DNA of 64,000 bases from Escherichia coli (GTDB lineage Bacteria; Pseudomonadota; Gammaproteobacteria; Enterobacterales; Enterobacteriaceae). How positions within the stretch are numbered: position 1 is the first letter of the stretch; every line of letters starts with the position of its first letter. The position numbers are program-made. This document shows positions 22,801 to 28,800 of the stretch, piece after piece. The stretch lies in NCBI RefSeq assembly GCF_022846255.1, contig NZ_AP025682.1, one strand, 5' to 3'.

Positions 22801-25800
22801 GCTGGAAGGTGTTGTGGCAAGCACCATTGAGGTTATTAAAAAAGGCAAATAAGTAGTGACTACATTAACGCTTGTTTTAACAGCAGTAGGGTCTGTTTTA
22901 CTGCTGCTGTTTTTAGTCATGAAGGCGCGTATGCACGCTTTCCTGGCTTTAATGGTGGTGTCCATGGGGGCTGGCCTTTTTTCCGGTATGCCGCTCGATA
23001 AAATCGCAGCGACGATGGAAAAAGGGATGGGAGGCACCCTCGGCTTCCTGGCGGTGGTTGTCGCCCTGGGAGCCATGTTTGGTAAGATCTTACATGAAAC
23101 CGGCGCGGTCGATCAGATTGCCGTCAAAATGCTCAAATCCTTCGGTCACAGCCGCGTGCATTATGCCATCGGCCTTGCGGGGCTGGTTTGTGCGCTACCG
23201 CTGTTCTTTGAAGTGGCGATTGTTCTGCTGATTAGCGTTGCTTTCTCAATGGCGCGCCACACCGGCACGAACCTGGTGAAGCTGGTAATCCCATTATTCG
23301 CCGGCGTGGCGGCAGCGGCTGCGTTCCTGGTGCCTGGGCCAGCGCCAATGCTGCTGGCATCGCAGATGAACGCCGACTTTGGCTGGATGATCCTGATTGG
23401 CCTGTGCGCGGCAATTCCGGGAATGATTATTGCCGGGCCGCTGTGGGGTAATTTCATCAGCCGCTACGTGGAGTTGCATATTCCTGACGACATCAGCGAA
23501 CCGCATCTCGGCGAAGGCAAAATGCCGTCCTTCGGATTCAGCCTGTCGCTGATCCTGTTGCCACTGGTGCTGGTGGGGCTGAAAACCATTGCCGCGCGTT
23601 TTGTGCCAGAAGGCTCTACCGCTTACGAATGGTTTGAGTTTATTGGTCATCCGTTTACCGCGATTCTGGTTGCTTGTCTGGTGGCGATTTACGGTCTGGC
23701 AATGCGTCAGGGTATGCCAAAAGACAAAGTGATGGAGATTTGCGGTCACGCGCTGCAACCGGCGGGGATCATTCTGCTGGTGATTGGTGCGGGCGGCGTG
23801 TTCAAACAGGTGCTGGTTGACTCTGGTGTCGGTCCGGCACTGGGCGAAGCGTTAACCGGCATGGGCCTGCCGATTGCCATCACCTGCTTCGTGCTGGCAG
23901 CTGCAGTGCGCATCATTCAGGGTTCTGCCACCGTTGCCTGTTTAACGGCGGTGGGACTGGTGATGCCGGTCATTGAACAACTGAACTACTCCGGTGCGCA
24001 AATGGCGGCACTGTCGATTTGTATCGCCGGTGGTTCGATTGTTGTCAGCCACGTTAACGACGCGGGTTTCTGGTTGTTCGGTAAATTTACCGGCGCGACC
24101 GAAGCCGAAACGCTTAAAACCTGGACCATGATGGAAACCATCCTCGGCACTGTCGGTGCCATCGTTGGGATGATTGCGTTCCAGCTGTTGAGTTAATTAC
24201 TGCGACAAATTACTGCGAGCTTGCTCGCAGTAATTCATTTCTCTTTTCTCCTGTCTTCATCTTTTTGATCTCTCTCGCAAAAAGACCGGAACATTATCCG
24301 TTCTAATCACTGTGTTAACGGACGAGGGAGAAGATGATGGAGAAACACGGAGCTGAATTGCTGTTACAGCGGATGTTAAGTAACACCAGCGCTACTTTCA
24401 GGGAAGGGCAATGGGAAGCTATAGATGCGGTGGTTAATCAGCGGCGAAAACTACTGGTTGTACAGCGCACCGGCTGGGGGAAAAGTGCCGTGTACTTCAT
24501 CGCCAGTAAAATCTTCCGCGATCGCGGCGCTGGCCCGACAATTATCATCTCTCCTTTGCTTGCCCTGATGCGTAACCAGGTTGCCGCCGCTGAACGGTTA
24601 GGTATTACGGCTGAAACGTTGAATTCTACAAACAGGGAAGAATGGCAGCGCATTAGCGATAAGTTGCTGCAAGGTGGCGTAGATTGTCTGCTGATTTCAC
24701 CTGAACGGTTGGCGAATCAGGATTTTCTTGAAACGGTTTTATATCCAGTCGCTGACCGCATCGGTTTACTGGTGGTCGATGAGGCGCACTGCATCTCTGA
24801 TTGGGGCCACGATTTCCGCCCGGATTACCGACGTATATTAGATATTTTGCGCCAACTGCCTGCGAATACCCCTATTCTGGGTACAACCGCGACAGCGAAT
24901 AACCGTGTCGTTGAGGATATCCGTCAGCAATTGGGTGACATTGTGATTCAGCGTGGAACGCTGGCTCGCGAAAGTTTGGCGCTTGATGCCTTAGTCTTAG
25001 GAGAACAGTCATCCCGTCTGGCATGGTTAGCAACGGTTATCCCTCAGTTTTCCAAATCGGGAATTGTTTATACCCTGACGACTCGCGATGCTGAACTTGT
25101 CGCCGAGTGGTTAAGGAAAAATGGTATCAGTGCATTTGCTTATTACAGCGGCGTGACTTGTGAAGGTGCGGAAGATTCTAATACTGCCAGGGAGTATCTG
25201 GAGCAGGCACTGCTGGCAAATAAAATCAAAGTGCTGGTCGCGACGACGGCATTAGGTATGGGATTTGATAAACCTGATTTAGGCTTCGTCATTCATTATC
25301 AGATGCCGGGGTCTATTGTCGGTTACTACCAACAGGTGGGGCGTGCCGGGCGTGCTATAGATTCCGCAGTTGGCATATTGCTTTGTGGTGGTGAAGACCG
25401 CGCTATTCATCAATTCTTCCGTGAAAGCGCCTTTCCTGCGGAGGCGCAAATTCATGAAATACTCAACGTACTTAGCGAGAATGACGGTCTTACCCTACGA
25501 GGCATTGAACAACGGACGAATCTTCGTTATGGGCAAATAGAAAAAGCACTGAAATTATTGGTAGCTGAAAATCCATCGCCTGTGGTGTATACCGAGAAAT
25601 TATGGCGCAGAACTATCGTCAGTTTTTCTCCTGATCATGAACGAATTAACCATTTGATGAATCAGAGAAAAAGTGAGTTGGCAGACGTTGAAAGCTATAT
25701 CACGACCAAGGAGTGCAAAATGCAATTTCTGCGCCGCGCACTCGATGAGCCAAGTGCCGAACGTTGTGGTAAATGTAGCAGTTGTCTTCAGCATCCGCTG

Positions 25801-28800
25801 TTGTCGCCCGACATTGATAGCGGCTTACTCCATGCGGCAAATTTATTTATTAAACACGCTGACCTGCCATTAAATCTCAATAAACAGGTGGCATCTGGGG
25901 CTTTTACGCAATACGGATTTAAAGGGAACTTGCCTGCGGGTTTACAAGGATCTACGGGGCGAATCCTTTCTCGTTGGGGAGATTCCGGGTGGGGAAAGCA
26001 GGTAGCACAGGAGAAAAAAACGGGGCGCTTCAGTGATGAACTGGTGGAGGCATGTGCGGAAATGGTTCGCCAACGCTGGAATCCGCATCCTGAACCAACC
26101 TGGGTATGCTGCGTTCCTTCATTAAGGCACCTCGACCTGGTTCCTGATTTTGCCCGGCGACTGGCGGCGAAACTTGGCTTACCTTTTATTGATGCCATTG
26201 AAAAAGTCGTGGACAATCCACCGCAGAAAATGCAGCAAAACCGTTTTCACCAGTGTCAAAATCTCGACGGGGCGTTTGTGATTACCCCTCCTTTGATGCC
26301 AGGTCCGGCGTTGCTGGTTGACGATATCGTGGATTCTGCATGGACGCTGACAGTTCTGACAGCACTGTTACGCCAGGCAGGTTGCCTGACGGTTTATCCT
26401 CTTGCCCTTGCTTCTACCTCGGTAAAAAATTGATGAATCTTTCAGCCAATGCTCAAGCAACTCTCCTGCTAACCAGCGATTTTTCTCGCGCGGCGGCGAG
26501 TGAGTATAAACCTCTTAGTAATAGTGAATGGGGGAAGTTTGCATTATGGCTGAAGCACCAACGTATCAGTCCCGCCGAGCTTCTGGTGCCGCAACCGCAA
26601 GAGAAACTTACAGGCTGGAGCGATCCGCGTATTTCTCAGGAGCGAATTCTTGGCTTGCTGGCGCGTGGTCATAGTCTGGCGTTGGCTGTAGATAAGTGGC
26701 AACGCGCCGGTTTATGGATCTTAACCCGCGGAGATGCCGATTATCCCGTTCGCTTGAAAAACCGATTGCGAACAGATGCACCTCCCGTTTTATTTGGCTG
26801 CGGGAATAAAGCATTACTGCAAGCGGAAGGTATGGCGATTGTTGGCTCGCGAGATGCTCCGACTGACGATTTGCGCTATACCCAACAACTGGCCGCGAAA
26901 CTGGCCCAACAGGGGATTTGCGTTATCTCTGGTGGTGCGCGAGGTATTGATGAATGTGCAATGGCCTCGGCTCTGGAGGTCGGGGGAACTGCCGTTGGCG
27001 TATTAGCTGATAGCTTGTTAAAAACGAGTACGTTAGTGAAATGGCGTGAAGGGCTTATAGCAGGCAACCTGGTGTTGATTTCGCCGTTTTACCCAGAGGT
27101 ACGTTTCACCGTCGGCAATGCGATGGCGCGGAATAAATATATTTATTGCCTTGCTGAAAGCGCAATGGTTGTACGTGCGGGAATGACCGGTGGAACGATA
27201 ACCGGGGCGATGGAGGCATTAAAACATCAGTGGCTGCCCATGCAGGTTAAACCAAATCAGGATATGCAATCAGCCAATTCACGATTAGTAGAAAATGGGG
27301 CGTCATGGAGTGCTGAACAGGCTGAGAATGTGACGATCAGACTGCCAGACGTTCCTGGGCTGATGTATGACAGAGCACTCCGTAACGCTCAACCAGAACT
27401 GTTTTCGCTGCACGAAGATGACGCAAATTACGCAGTAATGCCCGCGCATACCCCTGTCGATTTTTATCAACTCTTTGTGGCGGAACTGGCGATCCTTGCA
27501 AAGGAATCGATAAGTATTGAAAGGCTGGCGTCTTGTACTGGTTTAACCATCGAACAAATTAGTGTGTGGCTGAACCGCGCAGAAGAAGAGGGAAGGGTTA
27601 TCCGATTGGGCGAAGGTCATTATCAGTTCAGGTAATAAAACAGGTGCCGCGTCTGGTTGTGTGCAACACCTGTTTGAACCTTACCCCTTCATCCACATTC
27701 GAATGCCGTCGAGGAACATCTGAGTTGCCATCATCACCAGAATCAATCCCATCAGGCGTTCAAGTGCGTTCACCCCTTTCTCGCCCAGCAGACGTAAAAA
27801 TAGCGAAGACTGTAGCAGGATGACAAAGGTGCCGCCCCAGGCCAGCAGCAGAGCAATCACCAGATGTCCCATCTGATTCGGGTACTGGTGAGACAACAAC
27901 ATCAGCGTGGCGAGAATAGTCGGCCCGGCGACTAACGGAATTGCCAACGGCACGATAAATGGCTCTTCACCTGCCGGAAGCCCGCTGCTATTTCCTGAAG
28001 CGCTGGGGAAAATCATCTTAATGGCGATCAGAAACAGAATGATGCCGCCAGAAATGGAGACGGTTTCTGCCCGCAGGCTAAGAAATGCCAGAATTTTCTC
28101 TCCCGCAAACAGGAACACCAGCATCACAAGGAGAGCAATAAGCAACTCTCGCACCATGATTGCCCGCCGTCTTTTCGGTTCAGTATGTTTCAGTACGGAC
28201 ATGAAAATAGGTAGGTTTCCGAGCGGATCCATAATCAGGATCAATAAAACTGTTGCAGAAATGATTTCATTCATAACTCAAATTCCCTGATAATTGCCGC
28301 GGACTTTCTGCGTGCTAACAAAGCAGGATAAGTCGCATTACTGATGGCTTCGCTATCATTGATTAATTTCACTTGCGACTTTGGCTGCTTTTTGTATGGT
28401 GAAAGATGTGCCAGGAGGAGACCGGCACATTTATACAGCACACATCTTTGCAGGAAAAAACGCTTATGAAAAATGTTGGTTTTATCGGCTGGCGCGGTAT
28501 GGTCGGCTCCGTTCTCATGCAACGCATGGTTGAAGAGTGCGACTTCGACGCCATTCGCCCTGTCTTCTTTTCTACTTCTCAGCTTGGTCAGGCTGCGCCG
28601 TCTTTTGGCGGAACCACTGGCACACTTCAGGATGCCTTTGATCTGGAGGCGCTAAAGGCCCTCGATATCATTGTGACCTGTCAGGGCGGCGATTATACCA
28701 ACGAAATCTATCCAAAGCTTCGTGAAAGCGGATGGCAAGGTTACTGGATTGACGCAGCATCATCTCTGCGCATGAAAGATGACGCCATCATCATTCTTGA

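Follow-up and report, generated by a model that had tools for sequence, protein, structure and literature searches.

The two coupled genes that fill positions 24334-27635 of the window, the 64,000 nt stretch of Escherichia coli DNA (contig NZ_AP025682.1) analysed here, are the known rqlH-rqlI operon of this species, a member of the PsyrTA family of toxin-antitoxin, anti-phage systems. Both genes lie on the + strand and occupy the interval exactly in the ORF listing, in agreement with the first-pass annotation: ORF1 (24334..26433) encodes a RecQ-family helicase with a PRTase domain fused at the C terminus, 698 or 699 aa in length, and ORF2 in its longest call (26340..27635) encodes a DprA-like protein, the conserved start of which is instead at 26433, giving 400 aa. 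The arrangement of three folds in two genes, with the helicase and PRTase in one polypeptide, had likewise been proposed, and was borne out by Pfam, TIGR00614 and AlphaFold.

Identity was judged on a PsyrT profile match over the whole toxin together with an adjacent downstream match to PsyrA, and both were found. Residues 3-698 of ORF1 aligned with positions 4-687 of the 689 in the PADLOC PsyrT model (PDLC03928; E=0, 1064 bits), and ORF2 covered positions 1-397 of the 398 in the PsyrA model (PDLC03927; 1.3e-202, 671 bits); such full-length matches to the two HMMs are not due to chance. The locus has the same protein lengths (698 and 400 aa), gene order and stop/start overlap as RqlHI of E. coli F11, and the catalytic residues K49, D148 and D663 of F11 RqlH are all present in register. 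There is no difference of substance from PsyrTA/RqlHI, since the locus is that system's representative in E. coli. Published work already covers the operon, how it behaves as a toxin-antitoxin pair, its status as a listed defence system and its analogy with competence: Russell & Mulvey (2015) described rqlH-rqlI in extraintestinal pathogenic E. coli, PsyrTA was described in P. syringae (Sberro 2013), and PsyrTA is among the validated phage-defence systems (Millman et al. 2022). As a finding, the locus contributes little beyond this literature.

Genomic context of the cassette

In RefSeq the operon appears as a two-gene cassette flanked by gntU and yhgN, and alignment to K-12 revealed that these 3.5 kb stand in place of a gntU-yhgN spacer of 56 bp. 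At the left end, the alignment to the K-12 spacer diverges immediately after the gntU stop codon (24194-24196), from which a leader on the + strand (24197..24336) runs to rqlH. A terminator scan detected a hairpin at 24208-24235 that has a perfect 12 bp stem and then a run rich in T; this resembles a terminator of gntU. A promoter scan of the region upstream of rqlH gave no sigma-70 consensus, and the sequence GAGGGAG is located 5-6 nt ahead of the rqlH ATG. At the right end, the segment 27636..27680 extends to the stop codon of the convergent gene yhgN (27681..28274, - strand), at which the K-12 alignment resumes. Direct reading of the sequence revealed a 9 bp inverted repeat here, AAACAGGTG (27638-27646) and CACCTGTTT (27667-27675), which the terminator scan missed because the loop is 20 nt long.

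The cassette is carried by 1650 of 5426 complete E. coli genomes, with K-12 among those lacking it, and copies disrupted by IS1 are found in some genomes. A defence island around the cassette was rejected, as the flanks consist of the core genes gntRKU and yhgN-asd-glg; unknown ORFs near the cassette had no PADLOC matches, and the chromosomal gntX, considered as a possible local source of duplication, is absent from the window. In Marinobacter and V. vulnificus, relatives of PsyrTA have hsdS on one side and hsdR on the other, which places them within type I restriction-modification operons.

The RqlH toxin

The toxin gene, rqlH or psyrT (24337..26433, + strand), encodes 698 aa from the ATG at 24337, or 699 aa from the adjacent ATG at 24334. 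Published numbering of K49, D148 and D663 agrees with translation from the second of the two ATG codons, 24337, which yields the published length of 698 aa; the RefSeq annotation, 'RecQ family ATP-dependent DNA helicase', also begins there. An SF2 RecQ-type helicase core spans aa 20-357 (24391..25404, + strand), recognised by Pfam DEAD (5e-25) and Helicase_C (4e-13), by the NCBIfam RecQ-family model TIGR00614 (250.9 bits, above the cut-off of 219.8) and by a match to E. coli RecQ (1oyw, 5e-53), which together with other bacterial RecQs, BLM and RECQ1 is the closest solved relative of the domain. In the 699 aa numbering, the motifs are a Walker A GWGKS (47-51), a DEAH box (149-152) and a motif VI QQVGRAGR (333-340). 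Weaker Pfam matches were to Pribosyltran (aa 606-687) and to RecQ_Zn_bind (aa 444-485, E 0.0014), the latter containing a RecQ four-cysteine zinc-binding motif, C461, C478, C481 and C484 (25714..25785, + strand), with a spacing of 17/3/3, as in C380/C397/C400/C403 of E. coli RecQ. The HRDC domain had no Pfam match in ORF1.

This helicase had been described in the first pass as ComFA-like, which proved incorrect. No ComFA family occurs among the 25 NCBIfam matches of ORF1, published phylogeny places PsyrT in SF2_RecQ, and the sequence comparisons above put the RqlH helicase, with its zinc module, in the RecQ clade of SF2 and not with ComFA. It is not the orthologue of the housekeeping RecQ either, scoring 293 bits against a cut-off of 640 for TIGR01389 and 223 against 1015 for PRK11057. 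The core also matched PADLOC models of DpdF (1e-90), the RecQ-like helicase of the Dpd 7-deazaguanine DNA-modification/restriction system; however, membership of that family was rejected, since the 147 bits scored on the NCBIfam DpdF model fall below its cut-off of 550 and no other dpd genes are nearby. The DpdF models that match the PRTase tail of RqlH seem to represent pieces of PsyrT-type proteins.

The toxic module is the C-terminal ComFC-like type-I PRTase domain, at approximately aa 510-699 (25861..26430, + strand), with the PRPP loop LLVDDIVDSAWT at aa 660-671 (nt 26311-26346). Placement of this domain by sequence was uninformative: phmmer found nothing significant in the PDB, and a 49-sequence PRTase profile matched only the 30-50 residue PRPP loop of PRPP synthetases and purine PRTases, and neither ComF nor ShosT. 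Therefore profile-profile and fold comparisons were used. The domain aligned best with E. coli GntX, with which it has in common an NL..AF motif ahead of the PRPP loop; its marginal scores missed the cut-offs both for GntX (PRK11595, 15.5 against 304 bits) and for comF (TIGR00201, 11.5 against 233.55). As to an N-terminal zinc finger of ComF type immediately ahead of the PRTase, the four-cysteine motif lies about 100 aa upstream of the domain but matched RecQ_Zn_bind, and with hhalign the GntX N terminus remained unaligned to RqlH. A GntX family profile was barely better than a single sequence, because its members were all enterobacterial and at least 66% identical.

An AlphaFold model of RqlH aa 480-699 (pLDDT 86.5) has the type-I PRTase fold, and the domain has ComFC of H. 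pylori, a competence protein, as its nearest structural relative, its core being nearer to ComFC than to the salvage PRTases, although Foldseek did not separate ComF from the APRTs as relatives. The earlier description of a ComFC-like PRTase is sustained by structural proximity, but neither by Foldseek nor by the sequence scores.

The RqlI antitoxin and the parallel with competence

The antitoxin gene, rqlI or psyrA (26433..27635, + strand), encodes a DprA-like protein of 400 aa, which is the published length of RqlI. The conserved start codon, ATG 26433, overlaps the TGA stop codon of rqlH by one base (TGATG), and we show here that the two genes are translationally coupled. This M1 is invariant in 45 orthologues and is also the point at which the PsyrA model begins, and the RefSeq call, from the upstream ATG at 26340, is 31 codons too long; the corrected start affects cloning of rqlI.

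Pfam identified DNA_processg_A (PF02481, 2e-50) and SLOG cluster4 in ORF2. The DprA/SLOG Rossmann-fold core, aa 90-293 (26700..27311, + strand), contains a GSR motif including R140, an SGGARGID motif and R233, and a C-terminal winged-helix domain, aa 344-399 (27462..27629, + strand), follows a disordered linker (aa 306-341). The whole DprA architecture is present in RqlI: helical N-terminal domain, Rossmann core and winged helix. Alignment to H. pylori DprA (HpDprA, 4ljr) equates R140 and R233 with R52 and R143 of that protein, and the two also correspond to R139 and R234 of ShosA; among orthologues, R233 is invariant and R140 is conserved in at least 90%. The third ssDNA arginine, R170 in HpDprA, is replaced by Met260, and so RqlI retains two of the three arginines that contact ssDNA in DprA, R140 and R233 being predicted contacts. 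The DprA-like assignment made in the first pass is thus confirmed. Also correct was the distinction from housekeeping RecQ and DprA, with equivalog scores far under the cut-offs for PRK10736 (80 against 495 bits) as for TIGR01389 and PRK11057; TIGR00732 (101 against 191 bits) similarly led us to reject RqlI as the DprA orthologue of transformation.

These features bear on the likening of the module to the ComFA, ComFC and DprA trio of natural competence, which holds for the PRTase and DprA parts but not for the helicase. The analogy is only partly right because the helicase is RecQ and not ComFA, and RqlI is a full DprA with two of the three arginines. E. coli has its own dprA elsewhere, as well as its own gntX, and both count against the notion that the operon is a competence-type module handling incoming transforming DNA and passing it to RecA. 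That notion, which we regard as highly improbable, would account for a PRTase closest to ComFC and for a partner with DprA architecture and predicted ssDNA-contact residues; however, the RecQ-clade helicase is fused to the PRTase, membrane association is lacking, no DNA-uptake genes flank the cassette, every equivalog score for ComF and DprA falls well short of its cut-off, and RqlH is toxic by itself, unlike competence proteins. ComFC binds ssDNA and needs its own PRPP site, the loop of which reads DDIITTGTT as opposed to DDIVDSAWT in RqlH. Transformation was also undetected in the ExPEC isolates of Russell & Mulvey, in the Discussion of whose 2015 paper the ComF-operon/DprA parallel already appears, as it does in Iyer et al. 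2017; the analogy is not new.

Function and mechanism

Work on the E. coli allele (PMC4670107) has established that RqlH alone is genotoxic, causing SOS induction, filamentation, mutagenesis and growth arrest; that this requires the PRPP-binding DD motif of the C-terminal PRTase; that RqlI binds RqlH via the PRTase domain, as found by co-immunoprecipitation, and neutralises it; and that the ATPase activity of the helicase also holds toxicity down. A transplanted PsyrTA is reported to have protected against phages, and the psyrA deletion could not be transformed (Millman 2022). In the natural host E. coli NILS69, neither deletion of PsyrTA nor its expression in K-12 revealed detectable protection against the phages tested, and the latter produced only a growth defect.

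The toxin-antitoxin behaviour, the absence of a fitness cost in the rqlHI double mutant, the IS1-disrupted copies and the undetected protection in NILS69 are all consistent with a mainly selfish addiction cassette in E. coli, kept at gntU-yhgN because loss of rqlI is lethal, with any defensive or physiological benefit incidental. We consider this quite unlikely, as it leaves unexplained the defence-island enrichment and nesting in restriction-modification operons, the conserved helicase motifs, zinc site and predicted ssDNA-binding residues, and the heterologous phage protection.

Stand-alone RqlH proteins of M. smegmatis and other Gram-positive species share the RecQ-like core, the tetracysteine zinc module and the PRTase at the C terminus, and M. 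smegmatis RqlH served as the template for the E. coli K49 and D148 helicase mutations; however, the stand-alone proteins lack an RqlI partner and are not known to be toxic. Because most Gram-positive bacteria have RqlH without RqlI, the toxin-antitoxin reading is not valid for the whole family. This distribution, and the true 3'-5' helicase activity of M. smegmatis RqlH, are among the points favouring the model in Fig. 10 of Russell & Mulvey, in which the operon is a beneficial DNA-transaction module rather than immunity: a chromosomal nucleotide that the PRTase has marked or altered is resolved by RqlI together with the helicase, and toxicity only reflects an unbalanced pathway. The interaction of RqlH with RqlI, the DNA-stress phenotypes of the rqlI mutant, which worsen at low oxygen, and the lack of phage protection in NILS69 accord with this model. 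Nevertheless, it seems unlikely to us, given that fitness of the double mutant is unimpaired both in vitro and in mice, that the cassette is accessory, that relatives reside inside restriction-modification operons and that transplanted PsyrTA did give phage protection.

The reading we prefer, and hold to be very probable, is that of a chromosomal member of the PsyrTA toxin-antitoxin and phage-defence family, for which the mechanism inferred is one of restraint and release. In uninfected cells the PRTase would be held off by RqlI together with the ATP-driven helicase, and phage infection would remove this restraint, either because RqlI is titrated away by ssDNA or by replication intermediates bearing RecA, or because it decays once host gene expression is shut off. 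The freed PRTase might then use up PRPP, or modify a nucleotide or DNA substrate, blocking replication and aborting the infection. The trigger is extrapolated from models of the sister system ShosTA, namely an ssDNA-sensitive ShosA-RecA interaction and decay of the antitoxin when transcription stops; sensing of phage DNA by DprA, with release of the PRTase, is an idea of Rousset et al. 2022. ShosTA likewise pairs a PRTase toxin that requires PRPP binding with a DprA-like antitoxin, and its toxicity leads to filamentation and DNA damage. However, ShosT combines its PRTase with a pyrophosphatase-fold domain and not a helicase, for which reason RqlHI was rejected as a ShosTA member, and, in contrast to RqlI, which binds RqlH, ShosA binds RecA but not ShosT (type IV).

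A further suggestion, which we advance as speculative and rather improbable, is that the RqlH PRTase is a ComFC-derived domain acting on DNA itself, for instance through phosphoribosylation of bases or ends that the RecQ motor joined to it makes accessible, with RqlI reading or shielding the same ssDNA, and not a nucleotide-pool poison like ShosT. Were this the case, PsyrTA would be a defence system assembled from two parts of the competence machinery and a RecQ engine, employing an undescribed DNA-directed chemistry.

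Identification and boundaries of the operon

Two ORFs, both on the + strand, occupy 24334-27635, where the first-pass annotation had placed a helicase-PRTase gene beside a DprA-like partner. Pfam detects DEAD and Helicase_C domains in the product of the first, with weak matches to the RecQ zinc-binding domain and, at aa 606-687, to Pribosyltran; in the second product it finds a strong match to the DprA domain (PF02481, 2e-50) and another to SLOG. The former falls far under the RecQ orthologue cut-offs, and the latter under those for DprA. In addition to these domains, the PADLOC models PsyrT (E=0, 1064 bits) and PsyrA (1.3e-202) match the respective products over their entire lengths; therefore the module is real, rather than a chance pattern. 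Its two genes form the operon described as rqlH-rqlI in extraintestinal pathogenic E. coli (PMC4670107); PsyrT and PsyrA are the P. syringae orthologues. Two PADLOC models labelled 'DpdF', PDLC02869 (74 positions) and PDLC02866, also match the PRTase tail of RqlH (aa 626-699, window 26209-26430), with E values of 3.5e-53 and 4e-14 respectively; these seem to have been built from PsyrT-type PRTase fragments, and mis-calls could follow.

The rqlH ORF can be read from ATG 24334 (699 codons) or the adjacent ATG 24337 (698 codons); the published K49 (Walker A), D148 (DEAH) and D663 (PRPP loop) are in register with the latter, and the published lengths are 698 aa for RqlH and 400 aa for RqlI. The TGA stop codon of rqlH, at 26431-26433, shares one base with an ATG at 26433-26435 (TGATG), and the two genes are translationally coupled. 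Read from this ATG, rqlI encodes 400 aa. RefSeq and the ORF list instead put its start 93 nt earlier, at ATG 26340, giving a 431 aa product and a 94-nt overlap with rqlH. This is most likely an over-extension: the Met encoded at 26433 is invariant in 45 orthologues, conservation begins exactly there, the first position of the PsyrA profile falls on the same residue, and the published length also favours this start.

Relationship to competence proteins

The module had been proposed to recapitulate a competence trio of ComFA-like helicase, ComFC-like PRTase and DprA. The first of these likenesses does not extend beyond common membership of SF2. RqlH carries Walker A, DEAH and motif VI sequences together with a four-cysteine zinc motif, and passes the curated RecQ-family model TIGR00614 (250.9 bits against a cut-off of 219.8). 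Among proteins of solved structure, the best matches are to E. coli RecQ (5e-53), a further two bacterial RecQs, BLM, RECQ1, RECQ5 and WRN. PsyrT also falls within SF2_RecQ in a published phylogeny of SF1/SF2 enzymes; hence the helicase belongs to the RecQ clade.

The PRTase domain is more divergent, with sequence-only searches detecting the PRPP loop alone and the top NCBIfam match, GntX, reaching only 15.5 bits. A 49-sequence alignment of the RqlH C-terminal domain was therefore compared with E. coli proteins using hhalign. GntX ranked first (93.3% probability, score 54.0, 68 columns), followed by Prs (79.7%, 44.4, 72 columns), Hpt (74.1%, 40.0, 29 columns) and Apt (22%, 30.6, 74 columns). 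Against a GntX-family profile, the match grew to 104 columns, a stretch that starts at the first strand and PPi loop, ends at the PRPP loop and takes in a common NL..AF motif. Given the rank of GntX among these templates and the length of the profile match, the domain is ComFC-like in structure, albeit very divergent; by score, it is not a member of the ComF family itself. The ComFC protein of H. pylori binds ssDNA, and its PRPP site is required for DNA transport.

The E. coli PRPP loop (window 26311-26346) reads DDIVDSAWT, against a family consensus of DDVVDSGWT. PRTase PRPP loops usually have glycine at the position that is alanine in RqlH. Despite this replacement, the F11 protein has been published as toxic, and its toxicity depends on D663.

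The DprA-like character of the partner is upheld by the PF02481 core of RqlI, which also keeps counterparts to two of the three ssDNA contacts in HpDprA. RqlI R140 and R233 align with HpDprA R52 and R143, and with ShosA R139 and R234, both of which ShosA, the DprA-like antitoxin of the sister system ShosTA, requires for ssDNA binding and antitoxin activity. Across the RqlI family R233 is invariant, and at least 90% of members share R140. The third contact position (HpDprA R170, ShosA R261) is Met260 in RqlI; ShosA R261 is dispensable. RqlI has a conserved predicted ssDNA site.

The Discussion of Russell & Mulvey 2015 had already connected the system with natural transformation on both counts, through its homology to DprA and through the helicase and PRTase that the comF operon encodes. 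The ComF-operon/DprA parallel was drawn by Iyer et al. 2017 as well, and Rousset et al. 2022 proposed that DprA senses phage DNA and the PRTase is activated as a result. Within its limits, the competence hypothesis is sound, and it is already in print.

Genomic context and distribution

The cassette is flanked on the left by gntR-gntK-gntU and on the right by convergent yhgN, then asd and glgBXCA. In K-12 MG1655, gntU and yhgN are 56 bp apart; alignment with K-12 shows that around 3.48 kb (24197-27680) stands in place of this spacer, extending from directly after the gntU stop codon to that of yhgN. The cassette is present in 1650 of the 5426 complete E. coli genomes, in each case on the chromosome, and a few copies are interrupted by IS1. 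In NZ_OZ040267.1 and NZ_OZ039848.1, an IS1 transposase breaks the locus and the helicase gene is annotated as two pieces; these insertions may represent inactivation of the toxin.

A promoter scan upstream of rqlH found no sigma-70 consensus, and a terminator scan identified a terminator-like hairpin at 24208-24235, 3' of gntU. Within 24197-24235, TTACTGCGA is found twice in the same orientation, at 24198-24206 and again at 24211-24219, where it belongs to a perfect palindrome, AATTACTGCGAGC-TT-GCTCGCAGTAATT, just 3' of gntU. Scored as terminator-like, this palindrome could alternatively be an operator for the cassette.

A second strain-variable spot lies around 6 kb upstream of the cassette, where ggt directly adjoins yhhY (16600-18987); in K-12, yhhZ lies beyond yhhY. 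The RyhB small RNA (Rfam RF00057, 83 bits) is found at 19060-19124 (+), in the yhhY-yhhX interval that it also occupies in K-12. A low-GC (38-44%) island between glgP and glpD (39300-49200) carries a chaperone-usher fimbrial operon, encoding a major subunit, two chaperones, an usher and an adhesin-like protein (LpfA/FimC/FimD-type matches), followed by three ORFs (47041-47751, 47754-48521 and 48524-49129) for which no significant match to an NCBIfam or PADLOC family was obtained. The island is 99.3% identical to those of LF82 and NRG 857C, and is full-length in 556 of the 5426 genomes.

Relatives of the rqlH-rqlI pair are nested between hsdS and hsdR, in a type I restriction-modification operon, in Marinobacter sp. 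Arc7-DN-1 and Vibrio vulnificus; on a third contig, hsdS and hsdR fragments remain on both sides (these three loci are L007, 537-10514; L008, 1547-11587; and L010, 4525-8812), and in Brenneria the pair stands alone. A defence role for rqlH-rqlI fits with this context.

Toxin-antitoxin activity and a proposed mechanism

On its own, RqlH induces the SOS response and mutagenesis, makes cells filament and arrests their growth; toxicity is lost on deletion of aa 509-690 or mutation of D663, and the helicase-dead K49A and D148A proteins remain harmful unless D663 is mutated too (PMC4670107). The ATPase activity of the helicase has been reported to restrain this toxicity. RqlI neutralises RqlH and co-immunoprecipitates with the full-length protein, not with RqlH 1-509, whilst its own C-terminal HTH is dispensable (PMC4670107); published data indicate that binding is direct, via the PRTase domain. 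PsyrTA (RqlHI) is one of the phage-protecting systems listed by Millman et al., whose attempt to delete psyrA was unsuccessful. In one native E. coli host, protection by PsyrTA was not detectable.

These observations suggest a model in which infection would lift the restraint that RqlI places on RqlH, and the released PRTase would then act to block replication, resulting in abortive infection. The two systems differ in that RqlI binds RqlH, a contact with no counterpart between ShosA and ShosT; nevertheless, by analogy with ShosA, release might occur by either of two routes. Antitoxin decay could follow host shut-off, as demonstrated for ShosA with T7 Gp0.7, or ssDNA or RecA may compete for RqlI, as has been proposed for ShosA.
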